The translations under genes were made by a program, and so were the position numbers. Below, piece after piece: positions 59,865 through 64,000 of a stretch of 64,000 nucleotides of DNA. The number at the start of each line of letters is the position of its first letter. Within the stretch, counting starts at the first letter, position 1. Source of the DNA: Bdellovibrionota bacterium (GTDB taxonomy: Bacteria > Bdellovibrionota_C > UBA2361 > CALJRW01); NCBI GenBank assembly GCA_041740355.1, contig JBGSMD010000046.1, positions 64,001-128,000 on the forward strand, read 5' to 3'. The notes below the pieces were generated by a model. That model was not told the DNA's origin and did no database searches. It was given only the letters and a program-made list of their open reading frames with translations.

Positions 59865-60353
59865 ATGCCATGTCCATTTGCCCCGCTATTATCTATTATT
59901 CCAGCACTGCCCTTTCTGCCCTGGATTATTGGGAAGTCAATGGAGCGGCTTGGGAAAAAAAATAAAATAAAGTTTTTGGTTGGTGAGTCAGCAAGTCAAT
60001 CTAAAAATCTTGTACAGTTAGAGAATGATCAAGCTTTTTCCTTAGAGAATCCGCAATCCTGCATTAAGACCCTAGAGTTTTATCAGTCAGGTGCACCATA
60101 TTTTCGCAAAACTAAAGCGCACCTAGTCCTTCTAGCTAGTGATTCTAGGAGTGAAACTTTATTGTTCACGAAATTAGAAGATTCTGAAATTGCTAAAAGT
60201 CTAACCGCTGTTTTTCTTAAACATCCACTTTCTCGGGTAGTGTTTAAGGATAACCGTATCATAGTAAAGTTGATTAATCCCGAATGTTACACTCCCGAGG
60301 CTCTTGATTTGCTGATTGGCAATCTGAGCTTAGATATTAAAGCTGTGCTTTGA
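59865..60353 (+). CDS. Hypothetical protein with N-terminal hydrophobic segment
   Basis: 162 aa ATG ORF; no motif. Confidence 0.5.
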   Translation: MPCPFAPLLSIIPALPFLPWIIGKSMERLGKKNKIKFLVGESASQSKNLVQLENDQAFSLENPQSCIKTLEFYQSGAPYFRKTKAHLVLLASDSRSETLLFTKLEDSEIAKSLTAVFLKHPLSRVVFKDNRIIVKLINPECYTPEALDLLIGNLSLDIKAVL

Positions 60354-62010
60354 TTTTATCAGCGACTCGAAAGGAATTGGCATAGATTGTCCAAGTATAT
60401 GGAACGCTACCACCTGTTGGCATAAAGCTAGCATCGGACACGAATAAATTACTGGCACTGTAGGCTCGACAATCGGGATCAAGAACATGTTGATCGGGAT
60501 TATTTCCAAAGCGACATCCGCCAGCTACAAGATTCGGAGGTGGAGCACCACTAACACTGGAGGAAATATTTTTAAGTTTCATTTCTTCAAGTACCAGTTT
60601 TGCTTTGTCTCCCAGATATTTAGCAATTTTTAGATCATGTTGGTGATACCCGAGCCGTACTTTTGCAACAGGCGTATTCCACTGATCCTTATTTTGAGTA
60701 TCGAGGCTAACAAAACAATTATCTGTGGGTAACCAATCATTGAAAACTTCAAAGTTTAGTTGTCTCTCGCTAGCAAAACCCTTTTTTAGTCTTTCCTGAA
60801 GTGACTGTCCCCAGATTAACTTTTCACCATCCCATTTTAAACTATTTGCCCGACGAATTGGGTTGGCATGATCAAACAGAAAATCAATTAATCCACCTTT
60901 GACTCGCCCTCCTAATGATTGTTCATTAAAAATATACCAATCTTGTAGTGAGCGGTTAACAAATAGTCCCGGAGCTTTGAGACGATATGCAATTTCTTCT
61001 GGATAATCAGAGTAGTCTATCGTTCCATTGCCAGTTGCGCCGGCGGAGAAGATTAAGTTCTTACCAACTTGGCCATTATGATTAGCCAAACCATTTGGAT
61101 GCTTGCTACCTGTCGACATTAATAATATGCGACTAGTTTCAATTGCTTGGCAAGCAACGACAAATATTTTGGCAGTTACTTCTTGGGATAAACCTTCGCG
61201 GTTGTAATATTTAACTTTAGTAACATTGCCTTGCGGGTTACTTTCTAAATGATAAACAAAAGAGTGGGGACGAATTTCACAGCTTCCAGTTTTGAGAGCT
61301 AAATCTAGCAGTGCGGCCCTAGCACTTCCTTTCGCTCCACTATTACAACCATAGCTCCCACAAAAATTTGAGTAGTAACAACTGCTACGTTCGTTATGAG
61401 GAGTAGAGAGAATTGCCCGAGCCACTGGAATTGAATGGAAATTTAAATTTTTGCAGGCAGCATCAATTAATTCTACTACTTGATTTTCTTGTAGTGGTGG
61501 AAAAGGAAAATCTTTAGTTGATCTTGGTTCTTGAAAGGGATGATTAATAACTCGACCAGAAATGCCAACTATTTGTTCCACCTTAGTGTAATATGGTTCT
61601 AAGTCTTGATAAGTAATTGGCCAGTCTGAGATATTTGCGCCTTCGATTGGTCCAAATTCAGAAAGCAAATGAAAATCTTCTGGCTTTAGCCGATGGAAGT
61701 ACCCACTCATAAAATTAGATGATCCGCCAACACAGTTTCCATTCCAGAAATTTCGACCAGATTCTGTTGTACTTTCTGATTCCCAAGAATTAACTTTGCC
61801 AGTTTCAAGTACATGATACTCCTTCTTTAAACTTGGAGTGTAAACATCTCTACGAACAGCAACTAGTTCATCTTTAGAAAAATCTTTTTCTTTAAACCAA
61901 GGACCTTTTTCTAGAACTAGTACAGAATGTCCAGCGCTTGCTAGTTCTAAAGCAATGGGAGAGCCACCGGCACCAGAGCCGATGATACATACATCATAAT
62001 CAGTAATCAT
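60337..62010 (-). CDS. GMC-family flavoprotein oxidoreductase (atypical active site)
   Basis: IIGSGAGG, VLEKG, VGGSS, WPITY, Cys cluster CYYSNFCGSYGC, GGCRFG, NLFVSDASFMPT. Confidence 0.88.
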   Translation of the reverse strand: MITDYDVCIIGSGAGGSPIALELASAGHSVLVLEKGPWFKEKDFSKDELVAVRRDVYTPSLKKEYHVLETGKVNSWESESTTESGRNFWNGNCVGGSSNFMSGYFHRLKPEDFHLLSEFGPIEGANISDWPITYQDLEPYYTKVEQIVGISGRVINHPFQEPRSTKDFPFPPLQENQVVELIDAACKNLNFHSIPVARAILSTPHNERSSCYYSNFCGSYGCNSGAKGSARAALLDLALKTGSCEIRPHSFVYHLESNPQGNVTKVKYYNREGLSQEVTAKIFVVACQAIETSRILLMSTGSKHPNGLANHNGQVGKNLIFSAGATGNGTIDYSDYPEEIAYRLKAPGLFVNRSLQDWYIFNEQSLGGRVKGGLIDFLFDHANPIRRANSLKWDGEKLIWGQSLQERLKKGFASERQLNFEVFNDWLPTDNCFVSLDTQNKDQWNTPVAKVRLGYHQHDLKIAKYLGDKAKLVLEEMKLKNISSSVSGAPPPNLVAGGCRFGNNPDQHVLDPDCRAYSASNLFVSDASFMPTGGSVPYTWTIYANSFRVADKIKAQL

Positions 62011-62597
62011 ACTTTCAAGATTTTAGGGTAGGCATTAAGCTCGTTGGGACGGGGATATCCTGGTTGGATTCCTAACCACTCCCAGCCAATTGAGTTGGGA
62101 TTACCACCATAGAGGGGATCGCTAAGTAAGGCCTCAAAAATATATTTTAACATTGCCGACAACCAATTTTCACCCCAGCTTTTTTGAGTAATAATTTGAA
62201 ATATTTCTTCACGCTTTTCTTGATCTAGTTGATAGAAATTAAGCTGAAAATTTTCTTGACTTGTGTCGTTGATCCAATTAGCTCCTTTAATTAGGAATTC
62301 ACGGTCATCCAAGTCAATTTGTTGATCATGTAAAACAAATTGTAAAAATTCCAAGGCATTAATTTGTTCAGCATCAAGATTATTTTTTGTCTCTGGAAAA
62401 AGGTGATTTTGCGTAGCACGAAGATTCCTAAGTTGTAGATCATTAACGGGAGATGATAACCCCGTCTCTTGGTAGAAATATGTTAAACAGCCACTCAAAC
62501 TGAGGCATCCGGTAGTCGCAAGTAAGCCTTTTAAAAAGGAGCGACGATCGATTAGGCCTTCGGCAAAATTTACCAAGAGAGTCTTTTTATCTGTCAC
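62007..62597 (-). CDS. Gluconate-2-dehydrogenase subunit 3-like partner, Tat (lipo)protein
   Basis: DRRSFLKG twin-arginine motif, LSGC lipobox, DPLYGGN....GWEWLG...GYP; ATGA coupling to the GMC gene; GTG 62597 is the likely start. Confidence 0.85.
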   Translation of the reverse strand: MTDKKTLLVNFAEGLIDRRSFLKGLLATTGCLSLSGCLTYFYQETGLSSPVNDLQLRNLRATQNHLFPETKNNLDAEQINALEFLQFVLHDQQIDLDDREFLIKGANWINDTSQENFQLNFYQLDQEKREEIFQIITQKSWGENWLSAMLKYIFEALLSDPLYGGNPNSIGWEWLGIQPGYPRPNELNAYPKILKV

Positions 62598-63027
62598 TTT
62601 CTTTGGAATTAAATTTTTTAAATATGAAATAATCGAGGCTAAATTTTCCTGGACCACTAATTATTAAGCTAACTAGCATGATTATATAATATAAGGGGAT
62701 TTCGAAGCCATTTTTGCCCGCTTCGAATCCATGCTCTAAGTGTACTGTAAAAATGGCGACTAGCATTACAAAAATTAATGGAAATGAGATTAGGCGTGTT
62801 GCTAAGCCTAAAGTTAAAAGGATTACACCAGTTATTTCAGTAATCGTTGCTAAGTAGGCATTCAGTAGTGGCAAGGGAATATTCATACTACTAAACCATT
62901 CAGCAATCGCGGAAATGTTTTTTACTTTAGCTAGTGCTGGGGAAAAAAATCCATAAGCTAGAATTAATCGAAAGAATAGCGGTGGTAGATCTTTTAATTT
63001 TGTTAGAAGGTTTAAGATCAAAGACAT
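62587..63027 (-). CDS. DoxX-family membrane protein (HvfX-like)
   Basis: RLILAYGF...A..K, EWF...IPLP..NAYLA...E..G..LL.LGL.TR, VAIFTVH, NGFEIPLYY. Confidence 0.88.
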   Translation of the reverse strand: MSLILNLLTKLKDLPPLFFRLILAYGFFSPALAKVKNISAIAEWFSSMNIPLPLLNAYLATITEITGVILLTLGLATRLISFPLIFVMLVAIFTVHLEHGFEAGKNGFEIPLYYIIMLVSLIISGPGKFSLDYFIFKKFNSKESDR

Positions 63028-63055
63028 AGATTGTTTATTGGTAAGTATAAAGAAA

Positions 63056-63101
63056 GACGACATTCATTCGTTCTTTTAATCGAAGCATTCTGAATGTCGT
63101 C
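63056..63101 (-). terminator. Stem-loop between peptide gene and doxX
   Basis: Perfect 11-bp inverted repeat GACGACATTCA / TGAATGTCGTC followed on the - strand by TTTCTTT. Confidence 0.6.
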
Positions 63102-63132
63102 GGGTGTTGAATTAAAAAATTAACTCAATCTT

Positions 63133-63375
63133 TTATCCACATTTGCCAGTACCACATTTAGCTTCTTTATCTTTTCCATCATCACATTTTTTTGTTTCTT
63201 CTTCTTTACCACCATCGCATTTTCCAGTTTCTTCTTCTTTCCCACCATCGCATTTCGTTGTGTCATCAGCTTGAGTAGTTTGAAGATCGTTTGATGGTGT
63301 TAATGGAGCAGCACTTAATGAGCTGATACTTATAAATGTTGCGATCAAAGCAAGTAATAGTGTTTTCTTAATCAT
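63133..63375 (-). CDS. Secreted low-complexity Cys-repeat peptide (HvfA/bufferin-like precursor)
   Basis: Sec signal, then KCDGGKEEETG-KCDGGKEEETK-KCDDGKDKEA-KCGTGKCG; GGAG RBS; 33-nt tandem repeat. Confidence 0.82.
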   Translation of the reverse strand: MIKKTLLLALIATFISISSLSAAPLTPSNDLQTTQADDTTKCDGGKEEETGKCDGGKEEETKKCDDGKDKEAKCGTGKCG

Positions 63376-63601
63376 TATATTTCTCCGAGAATATTATATA
63401 TATAGTTGTTAAAGTTTTAAGGAGTTAGAATGAAAATGCCATTCAATAATCCTTAGTGCATAAGTTAGTGATAGCATATTACAATTTATTACAGATTTTT
63501 TTAATAATTTAGATTGATTCTCGCATCTTGCCCTAAAGCTATAGAGTAACTATAGTTACTTTTGTTAACTCATTGTTTTTAATCAATATTAATATTCTGC
63601 T

Positions 63602-64000
63602 GTGAGCAAAAAATTAAATCAGATACCTCTAAATTCTTTATCAGAGGCGATAGCTAATAAAGAAACAGAGGTAATCGAACTGCTAGTACAAGAGTACACG
63701 CTTTGCCTGATGAAAGCTGGATTGGGGTTAGGCTTTTCAGTGGATCAGGCGGAAGACTTAGTGCAAAGTGTTTGGATAGTTTTCTTTGGGCAGCCTGAGA
63801 AATTCGAACAAAGATCGCAGCTTAAGACTTATCTCTTTGGTATTTTATATAATAAAGCTCGAGAGTTACGCCGGGCTAATCAAAAAAATATTCCCGAAGA
63901 TCGGATTGAAGACTTGCTAAATGAATGTTTTAATTCCAAAGGGCATTGGTCTACTCATTTAGTCAGTCCTGATAAGATGCTCGAGTCTGTCGAGACTATT
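63602..64000 (+). CDS. ECF sigma factor, runs off the window end (not in ORF track)
   Basis: Manual translation from GTG 63602: ...DQAEDLVQSVW...FEQRSQLKTYLFGILYNKARE...FNSKGHW...; region-2 motifs. Confidence 0.85.
   Translation, partial: MSKKLNQIPLNSLSEAIANKETEVIELLVQEYTLCLMKAGLGLGFSVDQAEDLVQSVWIVFFGQPEKFEQRSQLKTYLFGILYNKARELRRANQKNIPEDRIEDLLNECFNSKGHWSTHLVSPDKMLESVETI

Follow-up and report, generated by a model that had tools for sequence, protein, structure and literature searches.

The window analysed here, a stretch of 64,000 nucleotides from a Bdellovibrionota bacterium, ends in a stress-controlled module (ECF sigma/anti-sigma) of the bufferin/oxazolin kind, in which MNIO (DUF692) and DUF2063, the usual cytoplasmic maturase pair, are displaced by a non-homologous pair made up of a GMC-family flavoprotein and a small subunit. 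The exchange of MNIO for the flavoenzyme recurs across several bacterial phyla, and no published account of such an MNIO-to-GMC swap was found in the literature. Our preferred reading, held tentatively and at slightly less than even confidence, is that the pair constitutes a periplasmic dehydrogenase that works on the cysteines of the accompanying peptide, replacing MNIO.

The unit lies entirely on the minus strand and comprises, from its 3' to its 5' end along the plus axis, the genes for the GMC flavoprotein, the small subunit and a DoxX membrane protein, a hairpin, and the gene for a KC(D/G)-repeat peptide, from which the ECF sigma and anti-sigma genes diverge. Every part named in a preliminary description of the locus lies where that description puts it. 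The same description had reported DUF692 and DUF2063 as missing from the unit, and the genome-wide search that it proposed likewise found neither in the assembly (74 contigs, 97.27% complete). Inspection of the ORF list and Pfam matches revealed no sugar transport or catabolic genes in the unit.

The precursor peptide gene (63133–63375, minus strand) encodes 80 residues. Its translation displays a signal-like N-terminus, with cleavage predicted after LSA at residue 22, followed by five KC[D/G] motifs and the C-terminus KCGTGKCG, as expected from its earlier portrayal as a secreted KC-repeat peptide. The sequence is atypical in consisting mainly of KCDGGK and does not pass the NCBIfam HvfA models, including NF050137 (HvfA KCGExKCG), which is passed by the similar peptides of two other loci, L030 and L037. 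A relative, L002, encodes an 82-residue orthologue. A box resembling LGSGxEVR follows the signal peptide in 33 of 37 KC peptides from MNIO-type loci, and was found in none of two sets of KC peptides from GMC-type genomes (0/11 and 0/22).

The DoxX protein (62587–63063, minus strand; Pfam DoxX, 4.2e-18) is of the HvfX type, scoring 127.7 bits with NCBIfam NF050144 against a cut-off of 80, and also matches Pfam DoxD at 2.4e-07. Its true start is probably at 63027, judging from the resulting length of 146 residues, which is that of L002; the alternative start at 63063 would fall within the hairpin. DoxX proteins of this type occur with MNIO too, and most GMC loci have no DoxX nearby. In Caulobacter, DoxX is dispensable for both modification and copper protection (PMC11626156), and it therefore need not be an electron partner. 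The window's genome encodes a second HvfX DoxX, which is accompanied by a paralogous sigma/anti-sigma pair, an AhpC/TSA redoxin, a thioredoxin and a DsbD_2 protein.

The small subunit (62007–62657, minus strand) is a "hitchhiker" protein of the Gluconate_2-dh3 family (PF13618, 6.3e-14) with a Pfam TAT_signal match, the twin-arginine motif IDRRSFLKG and, on reading by eye, a lipobox-like LSGC. The RR motif is near-invariant among 26 homologues, and 77 of 80 loci have a small-subunit homologue beside the GMC gene. The last three genes of the unit had been presented as overlapping; this holds for the small subunit and GMC genes, which share 4 nt, and the 71-nt overlap between DoxX and the small subunit hinges on the choice of start codon, the candidates for the small subunit being 62657, 62597 (GTG) and 62579 (TTG), the last two equally possible.

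The GMC gene (60337–62010, minus strand) encodes an FAD flavoprotein of 557 residues with GMC_oxred_N and GMC_oxred_C domains (Pfam), a GxGxxG motif from residue 11 and no signal peptide. Its nearest solved relatives are 6a2u_B (1.8e-42) and 7w2j_A. Residues Cys211, Cys217 and Cys222 constitute a triad of the 3Fe-4S type that is kept in 79/79 sequences of the subfamily. At the positions of the sugar-dehydrogenase catalytic His and Asn, whose roles are taken from PMC6719666, the window's enzyme has Leu494 and Pro537; across the subfamily, His476 of Burkholderia cepacia glucose dehydrogenase is replaced by Leu in 79/79 sequences and Asn519 by Pro or Thr in 77/79. A further cysteine near the flavin site, Cys499, is gained with respect to sugar dehydrogenases and conserved in 75/79. 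The enzyme retains the FAD and 3Fe-4S motifs, its active site is remodelled, and the prospect raised in the preliminary description that it might be a plain sugar dehydrogenase is not borne out.

The distribution of the two systems was compared in 80 genomes holding a close HvfX DoxX, whose DoxX loci were the top scorers for a profile derived from DoxX sequences linked to GMC. MNIO alone was found in 48, the GMC pair alone in 25 (a share that is not a prevalence, because the profile came from GMC-linked DoxX), both in 1 and neither in 6. The pair is thus present in 25 of 31 HvfX genomes lacking MNIO versus 1 of 49 with it, absences that are soft because most of the genomes are incomplete MAGs. 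Fisher's exact test for this complementarity gives p = 4.7e-14, an uncorrected value that ignores relatedness. DUF2063 was found in none of the 25 GMC-type genomes and in 5/5 MNIO-type controls, and as background a sample of 200 other Bacteroidota yielded the GMC subfamily once. Around the close HvfX DoxX genes themselves, MNIO lies in 40/80 loci, the combination of DoxX, small subunit and GMC in 5/80, and both in 0/80. Of those 40 MNIO loci, 33 show a run of KC peptide, MNIO, DUF2063-like protein and DoxX, in many cases preceded by sigma and anti-sigma genes. Whereas the canonical order is sigma, anti-sigma, KC peptide, MNIO, DUF2063 and DoxX, in the variant loci sigma, anti-sigma and KC peptide are followed by DoxX, small subunit and GMC, a comparison that upholds the earlier proposal that the GMC protein stands in the place of MNIO.

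The DoxX tree requires at least 11 switches between the MNIO and GMC states, at least 5 of them on well-supported branches, and its GMC-type members belong to Bacteroidota, Calditrichota, Campylobacterota, Fidelibacterota and the window's own lineage. An independent-pairs test, which is underpowered with 4–6 pairs on supported branches, finds MNIO changing opposite to GMC in 3 pairs and in the same way in 0–0.2 (sign test, p = 0.25).

KC peptides are found within about 6 kb of the GMC pair, in varied orientations, in 16 of the first 80 related loci, where about 0.8 would be expected by chance, and directly upstream of it in 6 of 21 further loci. DUF2282 bufferins adjoin the pair in 4 more of the 80, two of them checked with Pfam. 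Together with the distribution among MNIO-less HvfX genomes, these counts answer in the affirmative the question of co-occurrence raised in the preliminary description; neither a KC nor a DUF2282 gene lies within 6 kb in about 60 of the first 80 GMC loci. The commonest neighbours are periplasmic CxxC proteins of the thioredoxin fold, which flank the pair in 24/80 loci: directly upstream there is a Thioredoxin_7 protein in 20 loci and a TlpA/ResA-like protein in 4, and directly downstream, in 7 loci, a DsbA-like protein with a ScsC N-domain. The same three kinds of neighbour (20, 4 and 7 loci) characterize the genomes in which MNIO and the GMC pair coexist; among 50 other genomes with the GMC pair that were searched, 22 are of this kind, all of them Gammaproteobacteria by name or tree position. 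Since the two coexist there, MNIO does not render the pair's role superfluous, and that role may lie in thiol/disulfide chemistry rather than in the formation of heterocycles.

For the module of the window, we infer the substrate, chemistry, electron path and physiological role of the GMC pair as follows. The small, lipoprotein-like subunit would carry the GMC protein, with its FAD and 3Fe-4S cluster, to the periplasm through the Tat pathway, and the peptide would be exported by Sec. Once the peptide is outside, the flavoprotein would abstract a hydride from the C-beta of its cysteines; the neighbouring lysines would favour cysteine thiolates, and we propose that the lost catalytic His would therefore not be needed. 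Removal of the hydride would yield a cysteine thioaldehyde, which the backbone could trap as a heterocycle of the 5-thiooxazole or thiazole type. The 3Fe-4S cluster would pass the electrons on to an acceptor in the membrane, which may be DoxX and quinone, and this route, unlike that of MNIO, would not need O2. The product would buffer periplasmic copper or another thiophilic stressor. There is chemical precedent: PMC13083261 describes the GMC oxidoreductases ThaO and TheO as forming thiazoles from Gly-flanked cysteines in ribosomal peptides, PMC13638132 has GMC oxidases converting thiols to thioaldehydes and cysteine thioaldehydes cyclising onto a backbone carbonyl, and a cysteine thioaldehyde is the intermediate proposed for 5-thiooxazole formation by MNIO in PMC13097082. 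The preliminary reading of a GMC and DoxX system acting on the cysteine peptide is partly supported; the refutation tests set beforehand did not refute it, and its chemistry and the electron link between GMC and DoxX are putative.

Among the alternatives, it is possible, if doubtful, that the pair is a redox partner and not a maturase, oxidising or redox-cycling thiols, disulfides or bound copper in unmodified KC peptides, DUF2282 proteins and periplasmic CxxC thioredoxins; an unmodified cysteine peptide in MNIO-less lineages would need such a partner to stay functional. The prominence of thioredoxin-fold proteins beside the pair, the additional Cys499 near the flavin and the gammaproteobacterial coexistence with MNIO all point in this direction, as do the redoxin, thioredoxin and DsbD_2 genes around the second HvfX DoxX of the window's genome and, on reading by eye, the thioredoxin/redoxin genes beside close HvfX DoxX elsewhere (clusters d7 and d11). 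However, the pair itself has no CxxC, reduction of a disulfide by quinol would be uphill, and GMC enzymes are not known to act as disulfide oxidoreductases. Nor does this role alone explain why the pair is so rare among MNIO-bearing HvfX genomes (1/49) or why it occupies the operon slot of MNIO. It is unlikely that the pair is merely a co-regulated neighbour, a periplasmic small-molecule dehydrogenase of the same envelope-stress regulon, with the peptide serving as an unmodified thiolate sponge for metals or oxidants. The many GMC loci with no cysteine peptide within 6 kb (about 60/80) fit this reading, as does the sigma gene in 9 GMC loci, including one (L067) with ECF sigma and anti-sigma beside the pair and no peptide. 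A survey of the MNIO landscape counts Buf_EGKCG precursors without MNIO in 67 of 2583 complete genomes and allows that they may be unmodified (PMC12452194), which is also in its favour. Membership of a regulon, however, does not predict the mutual exclusion with MNIO and DUF2063, the tight and repeatedly re-invented adjacency to three kinds of cysteine-rich periplasmic proteins, or the loss of the His/Asn pair that oxidises alcohols.

It is highly improbable that the locus encodes a conventional three-part membrane dehydrogenase for sugars or polyols, of the gluconate 2-dehydrogenase or fructose dehydrogenase type, with DoxX in place of the cytochrome c subunit and an unrelated peptide. Among solved structures, the nearest are those of B. 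cepacia glucose dehydrogenase alpha (1.8e-42) and fructose dehydrogenase (about 1e-32), the hitchhiker family and the Cys triad are shared, and the DoxD match (2.4e-07) ties DoxX to a subunit of a quinone oxidoreductase; yet the His476/Asn519 pair is replaced across the subfamily, sugar genes are absent from the unit, and DoxX is of a type otherwise found in MNIO peptide clusters and is missing from most GMC loci. We give the least credence of all to an MNIO/DUF2063 pair that, encoded in sequence missing from the assembly, matures the peptide in trans and leaves the GMC pair irrelevant. With 74 contigs and 97.27% completeness about 3% may be missing, and trans-acting MNIOs for orphan precursors are considered in PMC12452194. 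Against this stand the absence of both MNIO and DUF2063 from the window's own genome and from 25/25 independent GMC-type genomes, and that of the MNIO-type precursor box from all 33 peptides of GMC-type genomes.

Two stem-loops followed by a U-run (UUUCUUU) lie between the peptide gene and doxX (about 63049–63128, minus strand), with a folding energy of −24.8 kcal/mol (z = −6.3) equalled by 0 of 200 shuffles, and L002 has a hairpin and T-run at the same position. A consensus terminator scan did not list the element, which resembles a terminator or attenuator and would keep transcripts of the peptide more abundant than those of the enzyme genes. Just upstream of the peptide gene, a sigma-70-like promoter match (TTAAAA-16 nt-TATAAT; 63393–63420, minus strand; 10/12 matches) is weak, because such sites are no commoner in the region than in shuffles. 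The divergent ECF sigma gene (plus strand, ORF and Pfam) encodes 196 residues, runs from 63602 to the end of the window at 64000 and extends 192 bases beyond it; it is followed, just outside, by a gene for a 76-residue zinc-finger anti-sigma. The sigma is homologous to a cluster of 34 sigmas, with 29–35% identity among the best 12 matches listed, and this cluster includes sigmas that head canonical KC peptide, MNIO, DUF2063 and DoxX clusters. Sigma and anti-sigma are homologous between the MNIO and GMC variants.

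Four consecutive genes on the minus strand make up the locus, running from 63375 to 60337 in the ORF list and encoding a peptide, a DoxX protein, a small subunit and a GMC flavoprotein. The first gene (63133–63375, minus strand) specifies an 80-residue KC peptide with a hydrophobic, signal-like N-terminus, five KC[D/G] motifs and the C-terminus KCGTGKCG; its mature part reads ...TKCDGGKEEETGKCDGGKEEETKKCDDGKDKEAKCGTGKCG. The DoxX protein (62587–63063, minus strand) matches the Pfam DoxX family (4.2e-18) and NF050144, the NCBIfam equivalog 'HvfX family Cu-binding RiPP maturation protein', with 127.7 bits at a cut-off of 80, and the HvfX/BufD-type feature is therefore present. 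The small subunit (62007–62657, minus strand) is a Gluconate_2-dh3 protein (PF13618, 6.3e-14) that carries a twin-arginine motif and a lipobox-like LSGC, and its gene shares 4 nt with that of the flavoprotein. The latter (60337–62010, minus strand; 557 amino acids) is composed of GMC_oxred_N and GMC_oxred_C domains, displays the FAD-binding GxGxxG motif at its very start and has no signal peptide.

Two stem-loops with a U-run occupy the gap between the peptide gene and doxX; their fold has an energy of −24.8 kcal/mol (z = −6.3), which none of 200 shuffled sequences equals. A hairpin and a T-run are found at the matching place in L002, the only close relative. Because the annotated DoxX start at 63063 falls inside the hairpin, the ATG at 63027 is the more likely start. 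A complete ECF sigma factor of 196 amino acids is encoded divergently on the plus strand from 63602 past the window end, and is followed there by a 76-residue zinc-finger anti-sigma factor and then by unrelated genes. The sigma and anti-sigma genes of bufferin/oxazolin-type control are thus present, the regulation itself being predicted from the genes. DinB-like, esterase and DUF6789-like genes and a 162-residue ORF were rejected as members of the unit, as they are kept solely in L002. The ORF (59865–60353, plus strand) is convergent to the GMC gene and belongs to no known family; it shares 41% identity with its counterpart in L002 and has no homologue in any other fetched locus.

Periplasmic copper-binding peptides of the bufferin and oxazolin kind make up a very large family that has been recognised recently and in which, to our knowledge, every member studied requires an MNIO iron enzyme. 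The locus resembles the corresponding HvfA-HvfB-HvfC-HvfX/BufABCD clusters (PMC11626156, PMC11252979, PMC12452194, PMC13097082) in that its operon begins with a Cys-rich precursor, with a probable Sec signal and K-C-G-like repeats, and shares with them an HvfX-type DoxX above the cut-off and homologous ECF sigma and anti-sigma factors. Unlike these clusters, both the locus and its genome lack MNIO and DUF2063, and a Tat-exported GMC flavoprotein with its small subunit is found instead, so that any modification of the peptide would follow export rather than precede it.

The preliminary description had noted a unit devoid of DUF692 (MNIO) and DUF2063 and had proposed a search of the rest of the genome. 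This observation extends to the whole assembly (3.27 Mb in 74 contigs, 97.27% complete), in which six-frame searches revealed neither MNIO (PF05114) nor DUF2063 (PF09836), and no MNIO was detected within a 20-kb region spanning the end of the window. DUF2063 was found in none of 25 genomes that carry the GMC pair and no MNIO (GMC-type genomes), as opposed to five of five MNIO-type controls, by a model that divergent 'PME-type 2' partners escape according to the available text of PMC12452194. The same source (section 20) reports Buf_EGKCG precursors without MNIO in 67 of 2583 complete genomes, cases that are left unexplained in the text available.

A scan of one genome per species confirmed 353 relatives of the GMC protein, and the best 80 of the 353, with 53–83% identity, were analysed. 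The small subunit adjoins the GMC gene in 77 of these 80 loci. KC peptides are encoded in the flanks of about 6 kb at 16 of the 80 loci (14 recovered by the motif screen and two, with KCEEGKCEEG repeats, by reading cluster c54), as compared with about 0.8 expected in 867 kb of flanks (Poisson probability of at least 16, about 6e-16). The expectation is based on the density of KC ORFs in the source genome, three in 3.27 Mb. The co-occurrence of this GMC subfamily with KC peptides, which had been suggested as a check, is thus borne out. The position of the peptide genes varies: some lie upstream, in the same or in divergent orientation, others downstream in convergent orientation or beyond a downstream DoxX. 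Of 21 further GMC loci with 1.5-kb flanks, six place a KC peptide gene immediately before that of the small subunit. Four more of the 80 loci have a gene for DUF2282 (Buf1 bufferin) beside the pair (two of the four Pfam-checked), as in L045, where the order is DUF2282, small subunit, GMC.

Other neighbours of the pair are redox proteins. Twenty of the 80 loci encode a secreted Thioredoxin_7 protein with a CxxC motif directly upstream, four a TlpA/ResA-like protein upstream, and seven a DsbA-like protein with a ScsC N-terminal domain directly downstream. ECF sigma genes occur in nine of the loci and DUF3379 genes in six, and strong DoxX homologues in seven, all five tested exceeding the HvfX cut-off. 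In Sedimenticola MAGs (L040, L041, L047, L050, L056, L061 and L073) the order Thioredoxin_7, small subunit, GMC, DsbA-like protein with ScsC N-domain is fixed, often with two more genes close by, one of the DUF3379 family and one for a weaker DoxX that scores 54.5 bits and stays under the HvfX cut-off.

The reverse approach started from a profile of HvfX DoxX proteins linked to GMC pairs and examined the 80 loci that matched it best. MNIO is found in 40 of these loci, 33 of which consist of a KC peptide, MNIO, a DUF2063-like protein and DoxX, often with sigma and anti-sigma factors first. Five of the 80 show DoxX followed by the small subunit and GMC, and no locus contains both MNIO and the GMC pair. 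The separation extends to whole genomes. Where the locus lacks MNIO (n = 36), the genome carries GMC in 23 cases (54–63% identity), MNIO in seven, neither in six and both in none. Where the locus is of the MNIO type (n = 42, two of them inferred from a DUF2063-like gene adjacent at a contig edge), all 42 genomes carry MNIO and one of them GMC as well. The two genomes of loci L103 and L144 carry GMC and no MNIO. In total, the 80 HvfX genomes comprise 48 with MNIO only, 25 with GMC only, one with both and six with neither, an exclusivity with a Fisher p value of 4.7e-14 when relatedness is ignored. As background, the GMC subfamily was found in at least one of 200 other evenly drawn Bacteroidota, at most seven candidates per genome being scored.

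On the DoxX tree, the MNIO and GMC states require at least 11 switches, at least five of them on well-supported branches. The GMC-type members belong to Bacteroidota, Calditrichota, Campylobacterota, Fidelibacterota, a MAG labelled Chlorobiota and the lineage of the window. In a TopA scan, this lineage was matched by its own MAGs alone, at 94% identity, and no other sequence exceeded 50% over the full length. An independent-pairs test on this tree yielded 4–6 supported pairs, with MNIO opposite in three and the same way in 0–0.2 (p = 0.25); with so few pairs and this p value, relatedness may contribute to the pattern. A degraded MNIO was observed in L058 (3925–4701) as three frame-shifted pieces with internal stops, directly upstream of genes for a TlpA-like protein, the small subunit and GMC and with a DUF2282 gene nearby; it may be the relic of a swap in progress.

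The closest solved relatives of the GMC protein are the catalytic subunits of B. cepacia glucose dehydrogenase (BcGDH; 6a2u_B, 1.8e-42) and fructose dehydrogenase (FDH; 7w2j_A, about 1e-32). BcGDH carries a 3Fe-4S cluster on Cys212, Cys218 and Cys222, and its His476 and Asn519 are described as the likely catalytic pair (PMC6719666). Cys211, Cys217 and Cys222 of the window protein align to the three cysteines, are invariant in 79 of 79 subfamily members and probably hold a 3Fe-4S cluster. By contrast, the position of His476 is occupied by Leu494 in 79 of 79 members and that of Asn519 (537 here) by Pro or Thr in 77 of 79, and an additional cysteine, Cys499, is located within GGCRFG in 75 of 79. 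The sites of the FDH mutants H1147A and N1146A correspond to Leu494 and Asn493, as judged from the entry names and the alignment. The electron-transfer apparatus of the dehydrogenases thus appears to be retained, with the acid-base pair for alcohol oxidation lost. A plain sugar dehydrogenase, which the preliminary description had named as the outcome that would count against its proposal, is difficult to reconcile with these replacements.

The small Tat-subunit family and the 3Fe-4S cysteine triad are shared with two FAD-dependent dehydrogenase complexes of the hitchhiker-subunit type, BcGDH gamma-alpha (6a2u; PMC6719666) and the FDH of Gluconobacter (7w2j), as far as these are described in the sources available. 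The window protein differs from BcGDH in the catalytic residues and in the absence of Cys213, which forms an inter-subunit disulfide in BcGDH. Unlike in the BcGDH and FDH complexes, the unit contains no gene for a multihaem cytochrome c, DoxX standing beside the pair instead, and the neighbours of GMC pairs are Cys-rich periplasmic proteins rather than genes of sugar metabolism. AceDH (GmcAB) of Methylacidiphilum is likewise composed of a GMC alpha subunit and a Tat-signal beta subunit, with an Fe-S cluster near the subunit interface; in the available part of its description it is an acetol dehydrogenase with a [Cu-4Fe-4S] cluster, encoded in a C3-catabolic cluster (bioRxiv 10.64898/2026.06.11.731722). 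A Cu-Fe-S cluster of this type was rejected for the present subfamily, which has three cysteines in the pattern C-x5-C-x4-C versus four (CxxCxxCxxxC) in AceDH as described there. Prediction of a complex of GMC, small subunit, mature peptide and FAD scored 0.02 at a mark of 0.32, the peptide's own fold being uncertain, and speaks neither for nor against such a complex.

The regulators and the precursors were also compared with those of MNIO clusters. The window sigma factor matches 34 sigma factors of one cluster, with 29–35% identity among the twelve best matches listed; this cluster includes sigma factors that head canonical MNIO clusters, and the anti-sigma factor matches seven of their partners. 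A comparison of the window peptide with NCBIfam at E = 10 yielded hits at chance level alone, none of them to an HvfA model. Two peptides encoded beside GMC pairs, in L030 and L037, pass the HvfA repeat model NF050137 with 29.2 and 28.0 bits, respectively, at a cut-off of 19.5.

A box of approximate consensus LGSGxE(V/L)RxxLL follows the signal peptide in 33 of 37 KC peptides of MNIO-type loci (L105–L182; examples are the genes L121:3908–4330 and L166:3845–4231). Unlike these precursors, the window peptide lacks the box, which is also absent from all 11 KC peptides in DoxX loci of GMC-type genomes and from all 22 beside GMC pairs (33 GMC-type peptides in all). Its distribution makes the box a candidate recognition element for MNIO/DUF2063 that would be dispensable where the GMC pair is the partner; no mention of it was found in the accessible MNIO literature. 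Some KC peptides of GMC-type genomes are long and enclose a calcium-binding segment that resembles an EF-hand (L164:6172–6864, L179:5269–5931, L201:3923–4660 and L115:4933–5553). KC|EF-hand chimaeras are described solely in MNIO clusters in the available text of the MNIO landscape paper (PMC12452194). L070 (4969–5340) and L081 (4952–5338) encode lipoprotein-like precursors with 8–10 KCEEG repeats (HKCEEGKCEEGKC...), whose genes immediately precede those of the small subunit and GMC and for which no Pfam or NCBIfam match was found.

The system is a variant of the known bufferin/oxazolin system that carries an uncharacterised enzyme subfamily. The reading best supported by these data, to which we give a serious but tentative place, is a non-orthologous displacement in which the GMC pair would oxidatively modify the peptide cysteines in the stead of MNIO and DUF2063. 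Such chemistry is plausible on published grounds. The MNIO route to 5-thiooxazole has been proposed to proceed via a Cys thioaldehyde (PMC13097082), and GMC oxidases are described that turn thiols into thioaldehydes, Cys thioaldehydes being trapped by the neighbouring backbone carbonyl to give 5-thio-oxazolines (PMC13638132). ThaO and TheO are GMC enzymes that make thiazoles from Gly-flanked cysteines in RiPP precursors (Nature 2026, PMC13083261). They resemble the window system in that a GMC flavoenzyme is encoded with a ribosomal Cys-rich peptide, a likeness of superfamily and Gly-flanked Cys pattern drawn from description rather than sequence, and differ in belonging to lanthipeptide-type clusters of Acidobacteriota, with no Tat subunit, FeS cluster, DoxX or ECF control in the description available (PMC13083261).

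The loss of the histidine from the GMC protein is in keeping with a Lys-adjacent thiolate, for which no catalytic base would be required, and electrons would leave via the putative 3Fe-4S cluster. DoxX is a candidate electron acceptor, though the data do not require it: bufferins of Caulobacter mature in its absence (PMC11626156), and in many GMC pairs no DoxX gene lies in the vicinity. The replacement of an O2-dependent iron enzyme by an O2-independent dehydrogenase would offer an attractive rationale. In its most far-reaching form, which we judge rather doubtful, displacement would amount to a third route to Cys-derived metal-binding heterocycles, flavin-based, O2-independent and periplasmic after export, in which GMC generates thioaldehydes that cyclise, electrons pass to the respiratory chain, and MNIO/DUF2063 have been displaced repeatedly in bacteria of low-oxygen and sulfidic habitats. 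If true, this route would have a parallel in other pairs of an aerobic and an anaerobic enzyme, FGE and anSME among them.

Among 50 other GMC-carrying genomes searched, 22 combine the GMC pair with MNIO. All 22 are Gammaproteobacteria by label or tree position, and the pair adjoins thioredoxins and a ScsC-like protein there. The source genome itself contains a second HvfX-type DoxX (131.5 bits) in the region C64:89063–92856 (L211:3063–6856). Its gene diverges from a paralogous ECF sigma/anti-sigma pair and has that of a secreted AhpC/TSA redoxin behind it; the upstream genes encode a thioredoxin, a DUF2784 protein and a membrane protein of the DsbD_2 family, and no KC peptide, GMC or MNIO was found at this locus. 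The thiol-redox company of the pair in the gammaproteobacterial genomes, and that of DoxX at the second locus, would fit a broader role of the GMC pair in periplasmic thiol or copper redox reactions, which we consider unlikely. An analogy for such redox cycling is offered by MftG (PMC11778925), a GMC enzyme that co-occurs with a RiPP cluster; this dehydrogenase reoxidises mycofactocin, a cofactor derived from the RiPP, and connects the cluster with the respiratory chain, which it feeds. The window protein scores 51.6 bits against the NCBIfam MftG cut-off of 387, and peptide, compartment and partners differ from those described. The coexistence with MNIO and the paralogous sigma/anti-sigma genes at the second DoxX locus would also fit a GMC pair that is merely a co-regulated neighbour of the peptide, an explanation to which we assign a still lower probability.

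No link of a GMC enzyme or Gluconate_2-dh3 subunit to bufferin, oxazolin, HvfA, HvfX or DoxX was found in the top-ranked titles and abstracts or in main-text passages of the open literature. The GMC pair is a specific and widespread candidate for the replacement of MNIO in precursor-bearing, MNIO-less genomes, and it defines a subfamily of exported flavoproteins with a remodelled active site, encoded beside Cys-rich peptides, DUF2282 bufferins or thioredoxins. If GMC modifies the peptide, it would represent a new enzyme class in RiPP cysteine chemistry, with maturation after export, and would suggest how anaerobes make such metallophores. If it does not, the pair would represent a new module for thiol redox reactions in the periplasm.

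The source genome specifies two further secreted proteins that are small and rich in cysteine (C39:85831–86151 and C63:123685–123942, both minus strand), with no DoxX or GMC gene near either. One is lipoprotein-like and has FeoB and a gene for an outer-membrane beta-barrel as neighbours; the other lies by an M42 peptidase and an ABC-2 transporter. In a Helicobacteraceae MAG (L016:3197–4945), a 582-residue protein with a glutamate-synthase (FMN) domain is encoded between an HvfX DoxX and the KC peptide, small subunit and GMC genes.
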